Below, one piece after another: positions 19,890 through 42,486 of a stretch of 43,917 bases of DNA. Position 1 is the stretch's first letter. Every line of letters starts with the position of its first letter. Where the stretch lies: the NCBI GenBank assembly GCA_023250035.1, contig JAHFBK010000003.1:1-43917 (forward strand), given 5' to 3'. Origin of the DNA: Candidatus Dadabacteria bacterium. Its GTDB lineage: Bacteria > Desulfobacterota_D > UBA1144 > Nemesobacterales > CSP1-2. The position numbers and the translations under genes were made by a program. Below the pieces are notes generated by a model, which made no database searches, was not told where the DNA came from, and was given only the letters and a program-made list of their open reading frames with translations.

Positions 19890-19961
19890 TAGCCACGGAG
19901 AACACAGAGTTCACAGGGAGGAAAGTTTTATTCTCTTTGTACTCTGTGACCTCTGTGGCTA
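19890..19961. repeat. 72 bp imperfect hairpin element (TAGCCAC..GAG..CACAGAG type), copy 1
   Basis: The left arm TAGCCACGGAGAACACAGAGTTCACAGGGA pairs imperfectly (about 24/30) with the right arm TCTCTTTGTACTCTGTGACCTCTGTGGCTA. A T-run follows. It fills the aroA-cmk gap. A related copy lies at 42408-42486. Confidence 0.55.
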
Positions 19962-19967
19962 GTTTTT

Positions 19968-22293: not shown

Positions 22294-22321
22294 GTAGGGG
22301 CACGTTGCAACGTGCCCCTAC
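22294..22321. repeat. REP-like palindrome GTAGGGGCACGT-TGCA-ACGTGCCCCTAC
   Basis: Perfect 12 bp stem with a 4 nt loop, framed by GTAG/CTAC, 15 bp from the left inverted repeat of the RAYT unit. Confidence 0.8.
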
Positions 22322-29342: not shown

Positions 29343-29350
29343 AATTTTTG

Positions 29351-29375
29351 TAGAGGCGACCCGCCGGGTCGTCTA
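29351..29375. repeat. degenerate REP-like hairpin directly after the frhB-like stop (possible terminator)
   Basis: TAGAGGCGACCC-GCC-GGGTCGTCTA, related to TAGGGGCGACC-GGCA-GGTCGCCCCTA at 32323-32348. Confidence 0.5.
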
Positions 29376-29395: not shown

Positions 29396-29696
29396 AATAG
29401 TGACAGACACTATTTTAATATTTTCTCCCCTTTTCCAAAGGGGAGCTAGAGGGGATTTTAAAGCTCCTTTTTTTCAAAGAATGGTTGAGGATTCAAATCT
29501 CCCTAAATCCCTCTTTAACAAAGAGGGACTTAACATCCTCCCCTTTTTATAATAGGGTGTATAGACCGGGGAGCTAGAGGGGATTTTAAAGCTCCTTTTT
29601 TTCAAAGAATGGTTGAGGATTCAAATCTCCCTAAATCCCTCTTTAACAAAGAGGGACTTAATATTCTCCCCCGAAAATATTGACAGACACTATTTT
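29396..29696. repeat. composite about 300 bp repeat region: two about 95 bp direct repeats bracketed by a duplicated 16-mer
   Basis: 29450-29544 and 29568-29662 are near-identical (period 118 bp; they differ only near the 3' end, TAACATCCTCCCC vs TAATATTCTCCCC). TGACAGACACTATTTT occurs at 29401-29416 and 29681-29696. Internal hairpins are CTCCCCTTT-TCC-AAAGGGGAG, GGAGCT..AGCTCC followed by T7, and CCCTCTTT-AACA-AAGAGGG. Confidence 0.8.
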
Positions 29697-32272: not shown

Positions 32273-32302
32273 GTAGGGGTTTGTGATTAATCAAACCCCT
32301 AC
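32273..32302. repeat. REP-like palindrome GTAGGGGTTTG-TGATTAAT-CAAACCCCTAC
   Basis: 11 bp perfect stem with an 8 nt loop and a GTAG/CTAC frame. Confidence 0.75.
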
Positions 32303-32322
32303 CAGATATATTGGCATCTTGC

Positions 32323-32348
32323 TAGGGGCGACCGGCAGGTCGCCCCTA
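32323..32348. repeat. REP-like palindrome TAGGGGCGACC-GGCA-GGTCGCCCCTA
   Basis: 11 bp perfect stem with a 4 nt loop, 20 bp from the previous hairpin, upstream of cysE. Confidence 0.75.
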
Positions 32349-32400
32349 CAATCTTCCTTGACTTAAGCTCCTTTGGTCTTTATCTTTATTCACAAGATAA

Positions 32401-33096
32401 ATGGAGATTTTTAAGGAGATTAGGTCAGATTTTAATGCGGTTTTTGAAAGAGACCCCGCTGCTAGAAGCTCCATTGAAGTAATATTTGCCTACCCTGGGT
32501 TTCATGCAATATTTCTCCATCGCATTGCCCACTGGTTATGGAATAATCATTTGAGGTTTCTTGCCAGGTTTTTGTCGCACATTTCACGTTTTCTTACCGG
32601 CGTTGAAATTCATCCAGGGGCTAGAATCGGAAAGGGTTTTTTTATTGACCACGGAATGGGGGTTGTGATTGGCGAGACGTCTGAGATCGGTGATAATGTC
32701 ACGATCTATCACGGAGTCACATTAGGTGGAACCAGCTTCAGTAGAGGAAAGCGCCATCCAACAATTGAAAGCAATGTCACTATTGGAGCAGGTGCTAAAA
32801 TATTAGGTCCCCTTACTGTTGGTTCAAACAGTAAAATAGGGGCAAACTCAGTTGTAATAGTGGATGTGCCGCCGAGTTCTACTGTTGTAGGCGTCCCTGG
32901 TAAAACTGTTCTTAAAGAGGAATTCCCAGTTTATCCCGACCTTGAACATAATAAGCTTCCTGACCCCGAAGAGCGTGCTATCCAATCCCTTATAGAACAG
33001 GTAAAGGAACTTGAAAAGCGCATCAATTCCCTTGAAAATGACCTAGAAAAGACCAAAGAAGAAAATAGAGTCCTTCAAGTAGTAAAAACAAAGTGA
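32401..33096 (+). CDS. cysE: serine O-acetyltransferase
   Basis: 231 aa with DPAARS, left-handed hexapeptide repeats ([38 protein letters not shown]), and a C-terminal coiled extension. Confidence 0.85.
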
Positions 33097-33131
33097 AAAA
33101 CAATTTATATAGGAATTCACGGAATTAAAAC

Positions 33132-33515
33132 ATGTTCGAATTTCTCAAGGATAGAGGTCTGCGTTTCTATGACGAAGCTAGGGGAGATTTTGAAAAGGGG
33201 TATTATGATTTTTGCCTGTTTCATTCTGAACAGATGGTACAGCTTCTACTTAAGTATCTTATAGCGGTTAAGATAGATGACTTTCCTCGTATCCATTCAG
33301 TTTCACGACTATTTAAAGAAGTAGCAAATCTTTATGGACAGGGGGTAATGGACTTTTACAGGGATAATATCTCTATAATAACAGCGCTTGAAGAGGCATA
33401 CGTTGGTGCGAGATACATTGATATAGAGTTTGATAAAGAAATAGCAGCACAGGTTTTAGATTTTGGGGAAAGGTTTTTGAAGATGGTTGAGGAGATAAGA
33501 TCTCGTGGACATTGA
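33132..33515 (+). CDS. HEPN domain protein
   Basis: 127 aa all-helical protein with the pattern ...A..DF..G.YDFCLFHSEQ..QL.LK...HS...L....EEAYVGARY typical of PF05168-type HEPN. I did not find a clear Rx4-6H motif. Confidence 0.65.
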   Translation: MFEFLKDRGLRFYDEARGDFEKGYYDFCLFHSEQMVQLLLKYLIAVKIDDFPRIHSVSRLFKEVANLYGQGVMDFYRDNISIITALEEAYVGARYIDIEFDKEIAAQVLDFGERFLKMVEEIRSRGH

Positions 33516-33828
33516 AACCCTTACAAATTATGAACGTTATAGAACAAACTGGAAGAAATATGTATCTCAGATAAAATCCGAGGTTATAAAGCTTTGCTCA
33601 GATACAGAGGTATATATTTTTGGTTCCGTCGTTAAAGGAAACACCCATCCAACAAGCGATATAGATGTGCTTTTAGTTTCGGTTGAGTTTAAAAATATAA
33701 AAAAGAGAATTGAGACTCATTCAAAGTTAAAATTATTGTTTCTTGATGCACCCTTTGAGTTTCATCTCATATACCCGGAGAAATTCCCCTTTTACAAGAA
33801 GATGGCAAAGGAGATGGTAAAGATTTAA
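33505..33828 (+). CDS. minimal nucleotidyltransferase (MNT) domain protein
   Basis: 107 aa with the GSVVKGNTHPTSDIDVLLV signature (GSx10-ishDxD). GTG start overlaps the HEPN gene by 11 nt. Confidence 0.7.
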   Translation: MDIETLTNYERYRTNWKKYVSQIKSEVIKLCSDTEVYIFGSVVKGNTHPTSDIDVLLVSVEFKNIKKRIETHSKLKLLFLDAPFEFHLIYPEKFPFYKKMAKEMVKI

Positions 33829-33836
33829 TAGTTCTA

Positions 33837-35048
33837 ATGAAAAGAGTCTACTTAGATTACAACGCAACAACGCCGATTGACCCTCGTGTTCTTGAGGCGA
33901 TGATTCCTTATATGAAGGAGGAGTTTGGAAACCCTTCGAGTATCCACTCCTATGGAATGGCAGGAAAGGCTGCGCTTGATAATTCAAGAGAACAAATAGC
34001 TGAGCTTCTCGGAGCACGCCCTAAAGAGATTGTTTTTACGAGTGGTGGAAGTGAGAGTAATAATTTTGCTACAAAAGGAATTGCTTTTCTCCTAAGAGAG
34101 AAAGGGAACCATCTAATTACCACTCAAGTGGAACATGCTTCCGTTCTTGAAACATGTCGATTTCTTGAAACACAGGGGTTTCGAGTTACTTATCTCGGGG
34201 TAGACAAATACGGTCTTATTGATTTAGAGGAACTTAAAGAAACAATAACAGATGATACAATTCTCGTTTCGGTTATGTTTGCAAATAACGAAACTGGCGT
34301 GATAATGCCTATACAAGAAATTGCAGAGCTCGTGAAAGAAAAGGGGGTTATTTTTCATACCGATGCTATCCAGGCTGTCGGAAGGATTGACATAAATTTG
34401 AAGAATCTCCCAGTTGATCTTCTGTCTCTTTCTGGTCATAAACTCTATGGGCCAAAGGGGATAGGCGCGCTATTTGTAAGAACTGGTGTAGAGACACGCC
34501 ATGGCGTGTCTCTACAGCCTCTTATTCACGGAGGAGGACAGGAAAGAGGAAGGCGTTCAGGTACAGAGAATGTGGCTGGAATTATGGGACTTGGGAAGGC
34601 ATGTGAAATTTTGAAAGAAGATGCAGGATACAAGATGCAGGGTGCAAGAATAAAAGAATTGAGGGATGAGCTTTACGAGGGAATATCGGAAAGAATTAGC
34701 GGATTAAAACTAAACGGTCATCCTGAAAAGAGGCTTTCAAATACATTAAATTTGAGTTTTGAGGGAGTAGAGGGTGAATCGCTCGTAATGAACCTTGACC
34801 TTGAAGGGATAGCCGTATCTACCGGCTCCGCCTGTTCCGAAGGAAATGTTGAACCTTCCCATGTCCTACTTGCAATGGGTCTATCCAAAGAGCAAGCCGT
34901 TTCATCCCTGAGATTCAGTCTTGGAAGGTTCACGCGTAAAGAAGATATAGACAGAGTGCTTGAAGTTCTCCCTGTGATTATAGGGAGGATAAGAGGAATT
35001 AGATTGGTAGAGACGCCATTAATGGCGTCTCTACAGGATAGGAAATAA
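33837..35048 (+). CDS. nifS: cysteine desulfurase (NifS/IscS family) carrying REP-derived segments
   Basis: 403 aa with YLDYNATTP, GNPSSIHS, TSGGSESNN, SLSGHKLYGPKG (PLP lysine), HGGGQERGRRSGTENV and the active-site region STGSACS. Confidence 0.85.
   Translation: MKRVYLDYNATTPIDPRVLEAMIPYMKEEFGNPSSIHSYGMAGKAALDNSREQIAELLGARPKEIVFTSGGSESNNFATKGIAFLLREKGNHLITTQVEHASVLETCRFLETQGFRVTYLGVDKYGLIDLEELKETITDDTILVSVMFANNETGVIMPIQEIAELVKEKGVIFHTDAIQAVGRIDINLKNLPVDLLSLSGHKLYGPKGIGALFVRTGVETRHGVSLQPLIHGGGQERGRRSGTENVAGIMGLGKACEILKEDAGYKMQGARIKELRDELYEGISERISGLKLNGHPEKRLSNTLNLSFEGVEGESLVMNLDLEGIAVSTGSACSEGNVEPSHVLLAMGLSKEQAVSSLRFSLGRFTRKEDIDRVLEVLPVIIGRIRGIRLVETPLMASLQDRK
34488..34515. repeat. REP-like perfect palindrome GTAGAGACACGCCATGGCGTGTCTCTAC inside the nifS ORF
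   Basis: A 28 nt perfect palindrome read in-frame as V-E-T-R-H-G-V-S-L-Q. The intergenic copy at 40337-40363 is identical over 27 nt. Confidence 0.85.
35007..35034. repeat. REP-like perfect palindrome forming the 3' end of nifS
   Basis: A 28 nt perfect palindrome translated as the nifS C-terminal LVETPLMASLQ, followed by DRK-stop. Confidence 0.85.
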
Positions 35049-35626
35049 TGTGTAACGCGGATTTATACAGAGGGAAATACCGGATAAAACCCGCCAGATT
35101 AAAAGAATGGGATTGTTCATCTAGTGGTTATTATTTTGTCACGATTTGTACAAAAAATCAGGAATGCGTATTTGGTAGAATAGTTGATGATAAAATGGTA
35201 TTAACAGGGATCGGAAACATCGTAAAACGATATTGGTTAGAAATTCCAGAACATTTTCAAGATGTTAAATTAGATGAATTTATAATTATTCCAAATCATG
35301 TTCATGGAATTGTAATAATTAATAATCAATATTGTAGAGACGCCATTAATGGCGTCTCTACAGATAGTGGAGGAATTACAAGAGCGCATAATCCTATGTT
35401 ATCGGAAAATTCATTATCAAAAATAATACGTTGGTATAAGGGACGATGCACATTTGAAATCAATAAAATTCAGAGAAAATTCTGTTTTACCTGGCAATCC
35501 AGGTTCTATGACCATATTATCCGAAATGAAAAATCGTTACAAAAAATCAGGGAATACATAAATAACAACACATTAAAATGGGATATAGATGAAAATAACC
35601 CTGCTGTTTTTTGCAAAGAAGACTAG
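35048..35626 (+). CDS. IS200-like HUH/Tyr transposase, RAYT-like
   Basis: 192 aa with YYFVTICTKN, the HUH motif PNHVHGIVII, and WQSRFYDHIIRNE (candidate catalytic Tyr region). Its start overlaps the nifS stop (TAATG). Confidence 0.75.
   Translation: MCNADLYRGKYRIKPARLKEWDCSSSGYYFVTICTKNQECVFGRIVDDKMVLTGIGNIVKRYWLEIPEHFQDVKLDEFIIIPNHVHGIVIINNQYCRDAINGVSTDSGGITRAHNPMLSENSLSKIIRWYKGRCTFEINKIQRKFCFTWQSRFYDHIIRNEKSLQKIREYINNNTLKWDIDENNPAVFCKED
35334..35361. repeat. REP-like perfect palindrome inside the RAYT-like ORF
   Basis: Identical 28-mer to 35007-35034, read as (C)RDAINGVST between the HUH motif and the Tyr region. Confidence 0.85.
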
Positions 35627-35670
35627 AGAATGAAAGCCCTTGTTACTAAGAAAAAGCGGATATACATTAT

Positions 35671-35697
35671 GTAGAGACGCCATTGATGGCGTCTCTA
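35671..35697. repeat. REP-like palindrome (one central mismatch) overlapping the argC stop codon
   Basis: GTAGAGACGCCATTGATGGCGTCTCTA. The argC stop (rc of 35695-35697) lies within its last 3 nt. Confidence 0.8.
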
Positions 35698-36735
35698 AGG
35701 AAACACTGGAGGCATGTCTAGCCCTAGGGATTCAGGAAATCCCATCATAACGTTCATATTTTGAATAGCCTGACCTGATGCGCCTTTTACTAGGTTGTCA
35801 AGAACTGAGATTATAATTGCAGTTCTATTCTTTGGATTTGCCCTTATCCCAATGTCACAGAAGTTTGAACCCCTGACATCTCCTGTTGATGGGTAGGTTT
35901 TTTCAGGTGTGATTCTTATGAATCTTTTTCCCTTATAGAAATTTTCATAAAGTTCAAGAAGCTCTTTAGTTGTTATTTCTTCTCTCAGTCTTACATAAAT
36001 GGTAGAAAGAATCCCCCTATCCATAGGGATCAAATGTGGTGTGAATGAAACCCTTACGTTAAGTCCTGAATAGTTTGAAAGAACCTCGTCAATCTCAGGC
36101 GTGTGGCGATGATCCCCGACCTTGTAAGCTTTTACACCTTCATTCACCTCACAGAAATGGTAAGCAAGCTCCGGTGACCTTCCAGCGCCTGAGACGCCTG
36201 ACTTGGAGTCAATTATGATTGAGTCCTCTTCTATCATCTTGTTTTTAACCACCGGCGCAAGCCCTAGAATCGCAGATTCTGGATAACATCCGGGGTTTGC
36301 AACGAGTTTGGCTTTTGCAATCTTGGATTCAAAAAGTTCTGTTATTCCGTAAACCGCCTGAGGGATTAATTCAGGGCATGGATGTTCCCCATACCATTCC
36401 TTGTAGACATGGTAGCTCAGCCTGAAATCTGCACCCAAGTCTACAACCCTTTTTCCTCTCTCTACGAGTTCTTCAACTACCTTTGCCGATGCCCCGTGGG
36501 GAAGTGCGGCAAAGACAATCTCGATCTCATCGGGTATTGATTTCAAATCAAGTGGCTGAAGTTCCAGCTTGAAGAAGTTTCTTAAATGAGGAAGAACTTC
36601 TGAAACCGTTTTCCCAGCGTGTTTTTCGGCTGTTGCGTGGGTCACTTCAACTTTGGGATGAGTAATAAGGAATCTGAGAAGATCGCTTCCAGTGTAGCCA
36701 CTCGCTCCAAGCACCGCAACGCTTTTCTTCTCCAT
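35695..36735 (-). CDS. argC: N-acetyl-gamma-glutamyl-phosphate reductase
   Basis: 346 aa with GASGYTG and the NPGCYPES active-site Cys region. Confidence 0.9.
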   Translation of the reverse strand: MEKKSVAVLGASGYTGSDLLRFLITHPKVEVTHATAEKHAGKTVSEVLPHLRNFFKLELQPLDLKSIPDEIEIVFAALPHGASAKVVEELVERGKRVVDLGADFRLSYHVYKEWYGEHPCPELIPQAVYGITELFESKIAKAKLVANPGCYPESAILGLAPVVKNKMIEEDSIIIDSKSGVSGAGRSPELAYHFCEVNEGVKAYKVGDHRHTPEIDEVLSNYSGLNVRVSFTPHLIPMDRGILSTIYVRLREEITTKELLELYENFYKGKRFIRITPEKTYPSTGDVRGSNFCDIGIRANPKNRTAIIISVLDNLVKGASGQAIQNMNVMMGFPESLGLDMPPVFP

Positions 36736-36878
36736 GGGATTTGAAAAGTATCTGGTAATTGAGGTAAATGCAAGTTTTCATTGGGCTTACGCCTTATTAA
36801 ACCTTGACTCTAGGGGTCAAAATATGTAATGTAAAATATAAATACCATTCTGAATCTAACTCATCCTGGAGGAATACG

Positions 36879-37886
36879 ATGTCAATTAAGGTAGGCATTA
36901 ATGGCTTTGGAAGAATTGGTAGAAACGTGCTCCGAATCGGGGTTGAAAGAAAAGGATTAGAATTTGTAGGTATAAACGATATTACTGATGCTAAAACGCT
37001 TGCTCATCTTTTTAAATATGACTCTATTTTTGGTTCCTATAAAGGCGAGGTTAAGTCGGAAAACAGTCATGTTGTAATAGACGGGAAGAAGATAAGGGTC
37101 TTTTCGGAAAAAGAACCATCAAGGATTTCTTGGGAGGATGTAAGTGCACAGGTGGTTGTTGAGGCAAGCGGGCTATTTACCTCAAGGGAAGCCGCATCAA
37201 AACACCTTCATGGAACTGTAAAGAAGGTGATAATCACAGCACCTGCAAAGGGTGAGGTTGACCTTACCACTGTTTTAGGCGTAAATGAGAATCAATACGA
37301 TCATTCAAAACACCACGTTTTATCTAACGCCTCCTGCACTACGAACTGTTTTGCAATGCTTGTCAAGGTGTTACATGAGAATTTCAGGATTAAAAGAGGA
37401 GAGATGTCTACGATTCATTCCTACACAAATGATCAGAGAATACTCGACGCCCCACACAAGGATTTAAGAAGGGCACGTGCTGCAGCATTATCTATAATTC
37501 CTACTAGCACTGGGGCCGCAAAGGCGATTGAATTGATATTCCCTGAATTAAAAGGCAAATTGAGCTCGGTGGCGATGAGGATTCCTACTTCTGATGTATC
37601 GCTCGTTGACTTTTCATGTGAGGTGGAAAAGGTTTCGACTGCTGGCGAGGTTAACAGAAAATTTAAAGAAGCCTCTGAGCGGGAGCTTAAAGGCTATTTG
37701 AGATACGTAGATGAAGAGCTCGTTTCTGTGGATTTTGTGGGTGATACACATTCTGGGATCTTTGATTCATCTCTTACCTCCGTTGTGGATGGCACACTTG
37801 TTAAGGTTCTAGGATGGTATGATAACGAATATGGATACTCATCTAGGGTAGTAGACCTGATCGAATTCATTGGAGATAAGTTTTAA
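36879..37886 (+). CDS. gap: glyceraldehyde-3-phosphate dehydrogenase
   Basis: 335 aa from MSIKVGINGFGRIGR (GGAGG 6 nt upstream), with the SNASCTTNC active site and WYDNEYGYS. The 25 aa N-terminal extension in the ORF track (36804) is unlikely. Confidence 0.9.
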   Translation: MSIKVGINGFGRIGRNVLRIGVERKGLEFVGINDITDAKTLAHLFKYDSIFGSYKGEVKSENSHVVIDGKKIRVFSEKEPSRISWEDVSAQVVVEASGLFTSREAASKHLHGTVKKVIITAPAKGEVDLTTVLGVNENQYDHSKHHVLSNASCTTNCFAMLVKVLHENFRIKRGEMSTIHSYTNDQRILDAPHKDLRRARAAALSIIPTSTGAAKAIELIFPELKGKLSSVAMRIPTSDVSLVDFSCEVEKVSTAGEVNRKFKEASERELKGYLRYVDEELVSVDFVGDTHSGIFDSSLTSVVDGTLVKVLGWYDNEYGYSSRVVDLIEFIGDKF

Positions 37887-39079
37887 TGGCAAAAATGGTG
37901 GTATCCGACCTTCCTGATTCTACGTTTGAAGGGAGGCGAGTGTTTGTGAGGGTTGACTTTAATGTGCCGATTAAAGACGGGGTAATCAGCGAAGATTATA
38001 GAATTAGAAGAACAATCCCAACCATTGATTATCTTATAGAAAGGGGAGCAAAGGTAATCCTTGCCTCACACCTTGGAAGGCCAAGAGGGATGGTAATCCC
38101 TGATCTTTCTTTGAGACCTGTTTCCTTACGCCTTTCTGAGCTTCTTGGAAAGCATGTTAGTTTCATAGAATACGGACTAAACGATGAGGTGAAAATGGCT
38201 GTTCACGAGCTTCAAGAAGGTGAGGTAATGCTTCTTGAGAATCTAAGATTTCACAAGGAGGAAACGGAAAACGATCCCCATTTTTCAAAGGAGATTGCAT
38301 CGCTTGCGGATATTTACGTAAACGACGCTTTTGGTACATCTCATAGAAAACACGCTTCAACTTACGGAATGGCATTTAACTTTGATTTGAGGCTGGCTGG
38401 ATTTCTAGTTAATAGGGAGTTAAAATTTCTTACTAGACTACGTGAAAACCCTGATCACCCATATGTCGTAATAGTAGGAGGATCGAAAATTAAGGATAAA
38501 ATAAACGCACTGAAGCATCTACTAGAGAAGGCTGACAAGGTTCTTATTGGTGGCGGAGTTGCTTACACATTCCTAAAAGCTAAGGGGGTGAATGTAGGGG
38601 GCTCTATAACAGAAGATGAAATGATTGATTGGGTAAGGGAATCATTAGAAGAATACGAAGAAAAGATCTTTCTTCCTATTGACCATGTAGTTGCAGAAAG
38701 TCTTGAACATAGAAAAATCTGTATGGTTGTGGATCAGGAAATCCCTGAGCATTTTAAAGGGTTCGACATCGGGCCTAAAACGGTGAATCTATACACATCG
38801 GAGATTAAGGGAACAGGGTCTATTTTCTGGAACGGCCCCATGGGGGTCTTTGAAGTGAGTGATTTTTCGGCAGGCACAACACACATAGCACGCGCGATTG
38901 CGCTTGCTACATGGCGTGGAGCTACAACCGTAATCGGAGGTGGGGACACAATCGCTGCCATAAGAAAGGCAGAGGTAATGGATTCTGAAATCGTTCATAT
39001 TTCTACCGGAGGTGGAGCTTTCCTTGAATTTCTTGGTGGTGCTGAGCTTCCCGGGATCTCAGTGCTTTGTGATAAATAA
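37886..39079 (+). CDS. pgk: phosphoglycerate kinase
   Basis: 397 aa with RVDFNVP, ASHLGRP, DAFGTSHR and GGGD motifs. Its start overlaps the gap stop (TAATG). Confidence 0.9.
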   Translation: MAKMVVSDLPDSTFEGRRVFVRVDFNVPIKDGVISEDYRIRRTIPTIDYLIERGAKVILASHLGRPRGMVIPDLSLRPVSLRLSELLGKHVSFIEYGLNDEVKMAVHELQEGEVMLLENLRFHKEETENDPHFSKEIASLADIYVNDAFGTSHRKHASTYGMAFNFDLRLAGFLVNRELKFLTRLRENPDHPYVVIVGGSKIKDKINALKHLLEKADKVLIGGGVAYTFLKAKGVNVGGSITEDEMIDWVRESLEEYEEKIFLPIDHVVAESLEHRKICMVVDQEIPEHFKGFDIGPKTVNLYTSEIKGTGSIFWNGPMGVFEVSDFSAGTTHIARAIALATWRGATTVIGGGDTIAAIRKAEVMDSEIVHISTGGGAFLEFLGGAELPGISVLCDK

Positions 39080-40189: not shown

Positions 40190-40198
40190 ATTTAAATT

Positions 40199-40620
40199 GT
40201 AGGGGCGAGTCTTGTACTCGCCCTATCTGATGGGTACCCTGGACATTCTTGTCCCACATAAGTTATCCTCCCCCTTGCGGGGTCCAGTATCTCGAGCGCA
40301 GTCTGCGAGAGATGGAAATAAAAAATCAAGGTGGGGGTAGAGACACGCCATGGCGTGTCTCTAAAATAACGTGAGGCAGAATTAAGTGTAGCGGAGACCT
40401 TTAGGTCTCCATGGGCATTTGTCATTCCCAAATGTTACCCACTAAAGGCATGTGTGTACAAGCTTTATTGGGAATCCAGATGACTATTTTTGTATGAGCA
40501 ACTTCCAGCCGCGATAAAGATTGTAGGCACGAATTTATTCGTGCAAAGTAAGAAAGGAAAGCACAGACAAGCCTGTGCCTACAAAAAATTGTAGATTGTA
40601 GGCACGAATTTATTCGTGCA
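40199..40620. repeat. cluster of six REP-like hairpins (BIME-like) in the fbaB-fbp convergent gap
   Basis: The six hairpins are: 40199-40226 GTAGGGGCGAGTCTTGTACTCGCCCTAT; 40337-40363 GTAGAGACACGCCATGGCGTGTCTCTA; 40388-40410 GTAGCGGAGACC-TTTA-GGTCTCC; 40523-40545 and 40598-40620 GTAGGCACGAATTTATTCGTGCA (identical); 40561-40582 GCACAG-ACAAGC-CTGTGCCTAC. Confidence 0.8.
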
Positions 40621-40680
40621 ATAAAGTAGGGACCGCTGCGATATAATCGAACTAGGTAAAGATGTAACACTCGTGTGAAT

Positions 40681-42389: not shown

Positions 42390-42407
42390 GTTTTAAGGGT
42401 TTCGAAT

Positions 42408-42486
42408 TAGCCACAGAGGGAACCGAGAACACAGATAAGTATTTAAAAAAGATTTTTCTCCTTGACCTCCGGGATCTCCATGGCTA
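42408..42486. repeat. hairpin element (TAGCCAC..GAG..CACAGA type), copy 2
   Basis: TAGCCACAGAGGGAACCGAGAACACAGATAAG ... TTTCTCCTTGACCTCCGGGATCTCCATGGCTA followed by T8. It shares the TAGCCA / TGGCTA ends and the GAGAACACAGA core with 19890-19961, and fills the sbcC-cvpA gap. Confidence 0.45.

Follow-up and report, generated by a model that had tools for sequence, protein, structure and literature searches.

Between the convergent genes nifS and argC of Candidatus Dadabacteria lies a small transposase gene with a palindromic repeat on either side. We analysed this locus in a 43,917-nt stretch of DNA (assembly GCA_023250035.1, contig JAHFBK010000003.1; hereafter the window), together with related loci, which are cited by L numbers. 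The locus is, with high probability, a REPtron: a single, vertically inherited gene for a REP-associated tyrosine transposase (RAYT, also called TnpA-REP) of subclass 2.4, accompanied by its cognate double-foot GTAG...CTAC repetitive extragenic palindromes (REPs). It is a member of a described kind of element in a little-studied phylum, and neither a new kind of element nor a new mechanism.

The 28-nt GTAG...CTAC palindrome GTAGAGACGCCATTAATGGCGTCTCTAC (type A) is present three times in the window (palindromes are given without strand). The left REP (35007–35034) and the internal REP (35334–35361) are exact, with 14-bp arms in the left copy, and the right REP (35671–35698) has two mismatches, a loop A>G and the last C>A. 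The original prediction, made from the DNA alone, had two copies of the palindrome bracketing a 192-aa HUH/Tyr transposase. This arrangement is borne out, with the right copy spanning 35671–35698; what had been missed is the perfect third copy within the transposase gene and a sister palindrome within nifS. The sister REP (type B, GTAGAGACACGCCATGGCGTGTCTCTAC) shares its outer stem with type A and occurs at 34488–34515 and again, between genes, at 40337–40363, in a 490-nt spacer rich in other GTAG hairpins. Hence the 44-kb window contains five GTAGAGAC-type copies, three of them inside coding sequence and all within 6 kb of the RAYT gene, in addition to at least eight further GTAG-footed hairpins of different sequence. 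No match to the GTAGAGACGCCATTAATGGCGTCTCTAC palindrome was found in 100 dinucleotide-preserving shuffles. Folded as single-stranded DNA, each copy of it forms a hairpin with an 11–13-bp stem (−12 to −15 kcal/mol, z = −7.5 to −10.7). REPs are recognised as palindromes of 20–40 nt with a GTAG foot that are dispersed in multiple copies, and the palindromes here are 28 nt long, carry the GTAG foot and number five in the window when GTAGAGAC-type copies are counted. An Rfam scan of the whole window returned one tRNA only, and the hairpins are covered by no RNA family.

The RAYT gene (35048–35626, + strand) encodes 192 aa and was identified by the Pfam domain Y1_Tnp, its motifs, its predicted fold and its flanking REPs. 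Judged by its sequence, it is a TnpA-REP of subclass 2.4, which corresponds to RAYT Group 4 of Bertels et al. (2017, PMC5581495). As outlined in the sections of Quentin et al. (2018, PMC6006769) on this subclass, its members have the motifs NH[IFV]H, WQ and YIxNNP, a length of ∼194 aa, long or 'double-foot' REPs (5' GTAG ... CTAC 3') and REPs that lie in frame in the segment from the HUH to the Tyr motif. All features fit except the last residue of the Tyr motif, where the window has Thr for Pro. In alignment A1 (43 sequences), the motifs are NHVH at 83–86, W149-Q150 and Y170 in YINNNT; N83, H84, H86, W149 and Q150 are invariant, and all 19 invariant residues of the alignment are present in the window protein. 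Its Tyr motif, Y170-I-N-N-N-T, has the catalytic Tyr and IxNN of the family YIxNNP with Thr in place of the final Pro, and the L005 orthologue reads YINNNP. The length of 192 aa compares with a family median of 194, and the ends align with those of homologues, without a conserved C-terminal extension. The left REP ends 13 nt before the ATG and the right REP begins 44 nt past the stop, so that the gene is flanked within 1 kb by double-foot REPs (5' GT[AG]G ... C[TC]AC 3'), and the in-frame REP between HUH and Tyr motifs is found at 35334–35361, with the frame kept. The match to Y1_Tnp (PF01797; 31.3 bits, cut-off 23) is confined to the C-terminal half, since the domain is interrupted by the REP insert. 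Among 2347 homologues found, several are called 'REP element-mobilizing transposase RayT' at source. The AlphaFold2 (AF2) model has a confident core (mean predicted local distance difference test score, pLDDT, of 77), with the HUH strand at 84–91 and the next helix at 123–142. In Foldseek, it matches TnpA of IS608, ISDra2 and IS200 as well as the E. coli TnpA-REP structure 4er8, with E values of 1e-6 to 1e-5.

The closest named NifS homologues come from Candidatus Dadabacteria (e.g. CSP1-2, 91%), the others being metagenome-assembled genomes (MAGs) labelled Thermodesulfobacteriota. RAYT is present once in the window, at a position that is orthologous in four related assemblies. L004 (98% identity in NifS) has the cassette as in the window, with RAYT and ArgC 100% identical. 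In L006 (86%), which has the internal REP, nifS ends in the REP-coded tail SVETPLMASLHDKK and its TGA stop shares bases with the ATG of RAYT (ATGATG). L005 (84%) shows the order nifS-REP-RAYT-REP-argC and the junction ATAGGAAATAATGTGTAACGC as in the window; its nifS stop lies 11 nt before the ATG, its RAYT is 178 aa long, and its right REP, which resembles type B, is separated by 18 nt from the stop of argC. L007 and L008 (93%) still have a REP in the nifS tail and have no RAYT, with a 234-nt spacer full of other GTAG hairpins. L001 and L002 (about 86–88%) have no RAYT, a 48-nt spacer, the nifS tail SSSDKGNLPQSAQRVS and no internal nifS insert. The original prediction had suggested looking in related genomes for an empty site, and such sites exist: nifS and argC are directly convergent with a 55-nt spacer in the outgroup L178 (83%) and overlap by 26 nt in the outgroup L179 (75%), neither of which has RAYT.

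Synonymous divergence (dS) from the window amounts to 0.29–0.34 for L008, 0.51–0.61 for L001 and 0.80–1.05 for L005. For window versus L005, dS is 0.82 in RAYT, 0.80 in nifS and 1.05 in argC, and the corresponding ratios of non-synonymous to synonymous divergence (dN/dS) are 0.14, 0.11 and 0.05. Because RAYT dS equals that of the flanking genes and its dN/dS is 0.14, the gene has diverged in step with nifS and argC under purifying selection, the pattern expected of a resident, domesticated gene. The two outgroups indicate that the ancestral state was direct convergence of nifS and argC without RAYT. Under parsimony, the simplest history is that the cassette entered the nifS/argC spacer once, in an ancestor of this Dadabacteria subclade, since L005, the most distant by dS of the window, L008, L001 and L005, has the same junction. 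The transposase gene was probably lost later in the L001 and L008 lineages, given that both fall by dS inside the clade bounded by the RAYT-bearing L005. We considered L001 as the pre-insertion state and rejected it; its dS puts it inside the L005-bounded clade, which makes secondary loss likelier, and the true outgroups are L178 and L179. One caveat here is that this history rests on parsimony, and recombination between strains could blur it.

The nifS gene (33837–35048, + strand) encodes the cysteine desulfurase NifS of 403 aa (Pfam Aminotran_5, 2.6e-89) and contains two REP-derived coding segments. One is its 3' end. The original prediction held that the left REP encodes the last nifS residues and that the transposase ATG overlaps the nifS stop, and the reading frames agree with both statements (stop at 35046–35048, ATG at 35048–35050). 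The gene reads the left REP as V-E-T-P-L-M-A-S-L-(Q), followed by D-R-K and TAA, and the protein accordingly ends in ...RGIRL[VETPLMASLQ]DRK, with a new tail of 15 residues. Both the NCBIfam model TIGR03402 FeS_nifS (547 bits, cut-off 530.75, aligned residues 4–388 of 403) and the solved IscS structures cease aligning at residue 388. Orthologues without the left REP have tails such as ...REISSSDKGNLPQSAQRVS, ...ANSDRMRSFDL, GSDRLKSLSL or similar. Across 120 orthologues, REP-coded peptides are found at the 3' end in many lineages, translated from one or the other of the palindrome's two open frames (VETPLMASL, VETRHL, SDVETHNYASLQ, VETRLIASL, RRDAIHGVS, RRDAMNGVF). As read from these orthologues, the 3' end of nifS is a recurrent REP landing site.

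The other segment is the type B REP at 34488–34515, which lies in frame inside nifS and encodes VETRHGVSL(Q), for a net gain of six residues. Orthologues at 87–88% identity read RDGVK------LGPLIHGGG at this site and the window reads RTGVETRHGVSLQPLIHGGG; decayed forms of the insert (VGARHGVSLQ, VEAFRGTPLQ) are seen in other lineages, and the solved IscS structures show a gap of 4–6 aa at its position. NifS is most likely functional, since it passes the NifS equivalog cut-off and its dN/dS versus relatives is 0.11–0.17. The AF2 model of NifS is mediocre (mean pLDDT 71). Its pLDDT falls below 50 in the tail (392–403), and the insert immediately precedes a stretch of low confidence at 229–244. 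According to this model, the REP-coded tail is probably disordered.

A number of further observations concern nifS in the relatives. In L001 (4535–4600), which has no RAYT, the nifS tail (NLPQSAQRVS) overlaps another inverted repeat, GCCACAGAG...CTCTGTGGC, and a similar repeat pair containing CCACAGAG is present in the window at 19931–19964 and 42405–42438; this repeat may be a further small mobile element, by which the end of nifS is likewise rewritten. In L007 (2455–2500) and L008 (1345–1390), the REP of the nifS tail sits within a longer palindrome, ATTGTG-GTAGAG...CTCTAC-CACAAT, in which the flanking 6 nt are also inverted, and these flanks may be the footprint of an element insertion or rearrangement. 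L004 has an Arg to Cys change within the REP-coded nifS insert (34488–34515), which breaks one palindrome pair. Its nifS is only 97.5% identical to that of the window, compared to 100% for RAYT and argC, a hint of recombination in nifS. One contig of groundwater DNA run X1 differs from the window at 18 positions within 34127–34283, and neighbouring contigs are identical to the window.

On the other side of the cassette, argC (35695–36735, − strand) encodes N-acetyl-gamma-glutamyl-phosphate reductase (346 aa, identified by Pfam) with a native C-terminus. Its stop codon is contained in the right REP, as the original prediction had it: the TAG is the reverse complement of 35695–35697, in the 3' arm of the palindrome. 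The further claim that the cassette has rewritten both gene ends holds for nifS, whose tail is REP-coded and unlike that of orthologues, and fails for argC. Five of the seven loci compared share the ArgC tail ...DMPPVFP without any difference, namely the window, L004 and L005, which carry the cassette, and L001 and L008, which have no transposase gene; the relatives without the gene thus have the very C-terminus that was supposed to have been replaced, and by the criterion set in the original prediction itself the claim is refuted for argC. The terminal MPPVFP is kept in the outgroups L178 and L179, and the tail aligns end to end, to the last residue, with the solved structures 1xyg, 1vkn and 2cvo. 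Stop codons of argC are TAA in L178 and L179, TGA in L001 and TAG in the window, L005 and L008, and no REP touches the TAG of L005 or L008. From these alignments, the cassette has no effect on the ArgC protein, the right REP overlapping the stop codon only.

The internal REP lies directly after the HUH motif, in frame in the HUH–Tyr linker of RAYT, and encodes (C)RDAINGVST. In the AF2 model, the stretch holding this peptide (95–118) is disordered, with pLDDT below 50. A hairpin is present in the same linker in 50 of 51 homologous metagenome-contig genes with an intact HUH-WQ segment (∼98%). Across these genes, the hairpins have a conserved outer stem, GTAGAGACG/CGTCTCTAC, and an inner stem that varies yet stays perfectly complementary. 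For sixteen distinct 28-mers, 99.5% of cells are paired and 27 changes are double-sided; the scores for pairing and for covariation were higher than in any of 500 shuffles, and pairing fell to 26–54% when the partner was shifted by 1–3 columns. Of the 47 genes with flanking hairpins, 19 have one that matches their internal hairpin at 80% identity or higher. More than 90% of the 120 closest RAYT proteins have a DAINRVST-like peptide at the linker site. The internal REP is the most diagnostic feature of the family and is already published, in the description of the subclass in PMC6006769. A literature search for the REP-coded peptides (RDAINRVST and others) gave nothing relevant, its matches being unrelated primer sequences.

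What the internal REP does is a separate matter. The RAYT of L005 lacks it by a clean 36-nt indel (IIENQ/QGGIT versus IINNQ[YCRDAINGVSTD]SGGIT), and, because this orthologue is intact, the REP is at least dispensable. An ancient, statically inherited insert was considered and rejected; close homologues show absence, the other frame (VETCHGMSLQ), another inner stem and tandem copies, all signs of turnover. There is some modest chance that the internal REP is a working part, either a self-recognition site for autoregulation of the gene or mRNA, or a 'seed' copy by which transposase and cognate repeat travel together. The fixed site in ∼98% of genes, the compensated perfect palindrome, the 19 of 47 flank matches and the occurrence of the same core across phyla would fit such a role. 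A neutral alternative, in which the enzyme mostly targets the surroundings of its own gene and no insertions survive other than those in the disordered linker, fits equally well.

At the nifS/RAYT junction (AGGATAGGAAATAATG, 35035–35050, + strand), SD-like (Shine-Dalgarno-like) AGGA motifs lie 4 and 9 nt before the RAYT ATG, inside the last nifS codons, and the last A of the nifS stop is the A of the ATG (35048–35050). Scanning the + strand from 34306 to 35048 revealed no sigma-70-like promoter, and a terminator scan between nifS and RAYT found no terminator-like site. The ATG lies 0–12 nt from the nifS stop in three lineages, with a 1-nt overlap in the window, a 4-nt overlap in L006 and an 11-nt gap in L005. 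Co-transcription of RAYT with nifS is therefore plausible, given the absence of promoter and terminator signals and the tight junction in all three. The original prediction regarded tight coupling to a host gene as the unusual part, which is not really the case. Di Nocera et al. (2013, PMC3733652) had already described TAG stops supplied by GTAG REPs and REPs located within open reading frames (ORFs), and considered read-through from upstream the probable mode of RAYT expression.

These observations can be joined in the following scheme. By analogy with the E. coli enzyme (PMC3479197), RAYT would recognise REP hairpins folded from single-stranded DNA, and nick and rejoin them at the GTAG foot. 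It would prefer sites near its own gene, and permissive spots (the nifS tail, a nifS loop and its own linker) would collect in-frame REPs. Disruptive hits would be removed by selection, leaving only those that are in frame and in permissive segments. Local action is proposed because all five GTAGAGAC-type copies are so close to RAYT and because nifS is hit in the subclade of RAYT neighbours; the nifS hits are found exactly in the subclade where RAYT is, or was, adjacent. It would also supply the neutral account of the disordered RAYT linker that is almost always occupied. Having no promoter signal of its own, RAYT would be transcribed by read-through from nifS and translated from the AGGA motifs of the junction, possibly by termination-reinitiation, and the transposase gene would have been lost afterwards in some lineages (L001, L008).

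Several other explanations deserve consideration. RAYT could be functionally tied to nifS, with the TAATG overlap selected as a translational coupling by which transposase output is connected to Fe-S (iron–sulfur) and cysteine metabolism. The junction just described would suit such a coupling, in that the left REP and the ATG stay within 0–12 nt of the nifS stop in the window and L004, L006 and L005, promoter-like and terminator signals are missing and AGGA motifs occupy the last nifS codons. However, the extent of overlap varies among these lineages, the gene was lost from L001 and L008 with no visible compensation, and read-through expression is the default for RAYTs in the literature (PMC3733652). 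Homologues are moreover found elsewhere: one at 68% (L010) is again upstream of argC, with two extra genes between, and those in L009 and L011 stand in unrelated contexts, downstream of a DarT/Macro pair and of a polyprenyl synthase gene, respectively. We consider a functional tie quite unlikely. That the palindromes are host elements serving convergent genes, as bidirectional terminators or stabilisers of mRNA 3' ends, with an incidental transposase, is similarly improbable. REP hairpins do occur at the 3' ends of nifS, RAYT and argC, the RAYT-less L008 and L178 keep other GTAG hairpins in the nifS–argC spacer, and stabiliser and terminator roles of REPs have been published (PMC3733652). Yet on the coding strands of nifS, RAYT and argC none of the three copies is recognised as an intrinsic terminator; the scan picks out the internal copy alone, on the minus strand and thus antisense to RAYT. 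Three of the five GTAGAGAC-type copies are in coding sequence, where a terminator would be harmful, and the hairpin co-varies with RAYT genes across many genomes. A host function is compatible with the REPtron interpretation as a secondary role and does not replace it.

An active, recently inserted autonomous insertion sequence of the IS200/IS605 type would likewise have a Y1 transposase fold with its motifs and hairpins at both ends. This explanation is very improbable, because the same locus and junction are found in lineages with synonymous divergence of ∼0.8, equal to that of the flanking genes. In addition, there is one copy in 44 kb with no tnpB-like ORF nearby, the two ends carry one and the same symmetric palindrome, whereas such an element would have different subterminal hairpins on the left and on the right, and the palindrome occurs alone at many transposase-free sites. 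It is somewhat easier to imagine, though still improbable, that RAYT is decaying in this lineage, with an intact ORF and an inactive protein. The window protein departs from the family consensus at four positions with conservation of 90% or more (S15P, Y23C, M81I and P175T, the last within the YIxNNP Tyr motif), and the L005 orthologue has the consensus residue at all four. Set against this, all 19 invariant residues are present, including H84, H86, W149, Q150 and Y170, the ORF is identical in the independent assembly L004 and overall dN/dS is 0.14; none of the three cognate REPs has more than two mismatches, which speaks for recent activity or conversion.

The four substitutions may nonetheless have weakened RAYT activity in this lineage, and they are among a group of points that count against a working REPtron expressed through nifS. 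The E. coli-type RayT equivalog model NCBIfam NF047646 scores 52.8 bits versus a cut-off of 80 and aligns to residues 120–177 only; on this comparison, the window protein is a relative of the E. coli-type RayT and not an equivalog. The overlap of stop and start is not conserved, the nifS stop of L005 being 11 nt upstream of the ATG, and the promoter scan recognises sigma-70-type sites only. Three metatranscriptomes from the same groundwater study, compared with 32300–37900, yielded two small argC contigs and one REP-only match, leaving the junction uncovered. Finally, RAYT copy number per genome and local hopping are viewed here through one 44-kb window.

The repeat itself is spread far more widely. 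Its exact 26-nt core, TAGAGACGCCATTRATGGCGTCTCTA, is found in 86 stretches of species-representative genomes, from Bacteroidota (with many copies per genome), Omnitrophota, Planctomycetales, Spirochaetota, Melainabacteria, a cyanobacterium and several Dadabacteria MAGs. At 24 of 79 sites, it lies inside an unbroken ORF of at least 90 aa, e.g. CoaE-like (SRDAINGVST) or MnmA-like (VETPLMASLR). Five Dadabacteria or groundwater MAGs have the exact core at 10 unique sites with unique flanks, as for dispersed REPs, and many contigs of groundwater run X1 match the REP only and then diverge. In other phyla, a RAYT ORF lies within 8 kb of an exact-core REP at only 4 of 80 loci, so that these loci provide no link between the exact REP and a RAYT in those genomes. 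Sharing of the REP across phyla fits the distribution of subclass 2.4, which is described as patchy across phyla and transfer-prone in the relevant part of PMC6006769.

Some side observations on the repeats may be added. Another in-frame host ORF of TAGAGACGCCATTRATGGCGTCTCTA encodes a radical-SAM-like protein; sites are, for example, L055:6580, L041:4527, L053:802 and L075:6228 (among L012–L091). Identity of the REP core across at least seven phyla is unusual compared to Pseudomonas or E. coli REPs. In the window, the 490-nt spacer at 40190–40680 contains at least six different GTAG-type hairpins, including the type B REP, TAGGGGCGAGTCTTGTACTCGCCCTA and GTAGCGGAGACCTTTAGGTCTCC, has TTGTAGGCACGAATTTATTCGTGCAA twice, 75 nt apart, and looks like a cluster of the bacterial interspersed mosaic element (BIME) type. 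Extragenic double-foot GTAG palindromes with unrelated stems occur near gene ends at 22294–22321 (GTAGGGGCACGTTGCAACGTGCCCCTAC), 29350–29375 (GTAGAGGCGACCCGCCGGGTCGTCTA), 32273–32302 (GTAGGGGTTTGTGATTAATCAAACCCCTAC) and 32323–32348 (TAGGGGCGACCGGCAGGTCGCCCCTA). Several REP families thus occur together in the window, versus one visible RAYT.

How does the locus compare with known systems? It shares with subclass 2.4, or RAYT Group 4, the NH[IFV]H and WQ motifs, the length of ∼194 aa, the long double-foot REPs and a scattered occurrence across phyla, as set out in the subclass accounts of PMC6006769 and PMC5581495. It differs from those accounts in the Tyr motif, YINNNT versus YIxNNP, and in its host, Dadabacteria not being among the phyla named in them; at this locus, the coding ends of host genes have in addition taken up flanking REPs, and the series of gains and losses is resolved. 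Like the E. coli TnpA-REP/RayT (PDB 4er8; Messing et al. 2012, PMC3479197), the RAYT has an HUH/Y1 fold (Foldseek E = 1e-5), GTAG-footed hairpins as presumed substrate and the probable character of a single domesticated gene flanked by its own REPs. The E. coli protein, in contrast, belongs to subclass 2.2, its REPs are imperfect, single-foot and extragenic, and there is no REP inside its gene. The GTAG REPs surveyed by Di Nocera, De Gregorio and Rocco (PMC3733652) resemble those described here in that a REP terminus supplies or overlaps a TAG stop (here that of argC) and in that some lie wholly within ORFs with the frame kept (here nifS and RAYT); this lineage was not covered by that survey, and here orthologues with and without insertions date and polarise each event. 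TnpA proteins of the IS200/IS605 group (IS608, ISDra2) are the best structural matches (E ∼1e-6) and share the HUH/Tyr chemistry on single-stranded DNA hairpins. Unlike these elements, the cassette is a single copy in the window, syntenic and vertically inherited, has identical symmetric palindromes at both ends and lacks tnpB.

A further parallel is offered by the Rickettsia palindromic elements (RPEs), which Ogata and colleagues reportedly described in 2000 as inserted in frame in protein genes. These too are short palindromic repeats tolerated as in-frame peptides in housekeeping proteins. RPE-1 elements are longer than the REPs discussed here. The elements of the window differ in being GTAG REPs that adjoin their own RAYT, whereas RPE-4 and RPE-6 have been grouped with CGTC REPs, for which no dedicated transposase is known (PMC3733652).

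With this locus, the hosts of subclass 2.4 REPtrons named in the published accounts cited above are extended by a candidate phylum, Dadabacteria. It also provides an unusually complete natural series at a single site, consisting of an empty site, a cassette with REPs in coding sequence, orthologues with and without intragenic REPs, and a secondary loss that leaves a REP-coded NifS tail. The series illustrates how a resident RAYT can remodel proteins encoded by its neighbours, here with a new C-terminus and six internal residues in NifS, while selection keeps both genes working. For annotation, it carries a warning: VETPLMASLQ, VETRHGVSLQ and RDAINGVST in unrelated proteins are REP read-throughs and not conserved motifs.

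Other features of the window lie outside the cassette. Between cysE and nifS (33132–33828), the ORFs of a HEPN protein (127 aa) and an MntA-like nucleotidyltransferase (107 aa) overlap by 11 nt, and the pair looks like a type VII toxin–antitoxin module. The same pair occupies this slot in L001, L002 and L004; unrelated ORFs of 175–237 aa are found there in L003, L006 and L007, two small ORFs in L178 and nothing in L005 and L179. The intergenic region at 29440–29671 contains two 104-nt direct repeats, 98% identical and with a period of 128 nt, each with a 9-bp hairpin, TCCCTCTTTAACAAAGAGGGA; they have no Rfam match. A 1.4-kb region (13366–14761), in which no ORF exceeds 63 aa, contains a strong hairpin at 14492–14527 with a 14-bp stem, AGTGGGAATGTCCC...GGGACATTCCCACT, also without an Rfam match. 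At 478–2120, two adjacent paralogous genes (256 and 250 aa) are 73–74% identical at the nucleotide level over ∼600 nt, which marks them as a tandem duplication.

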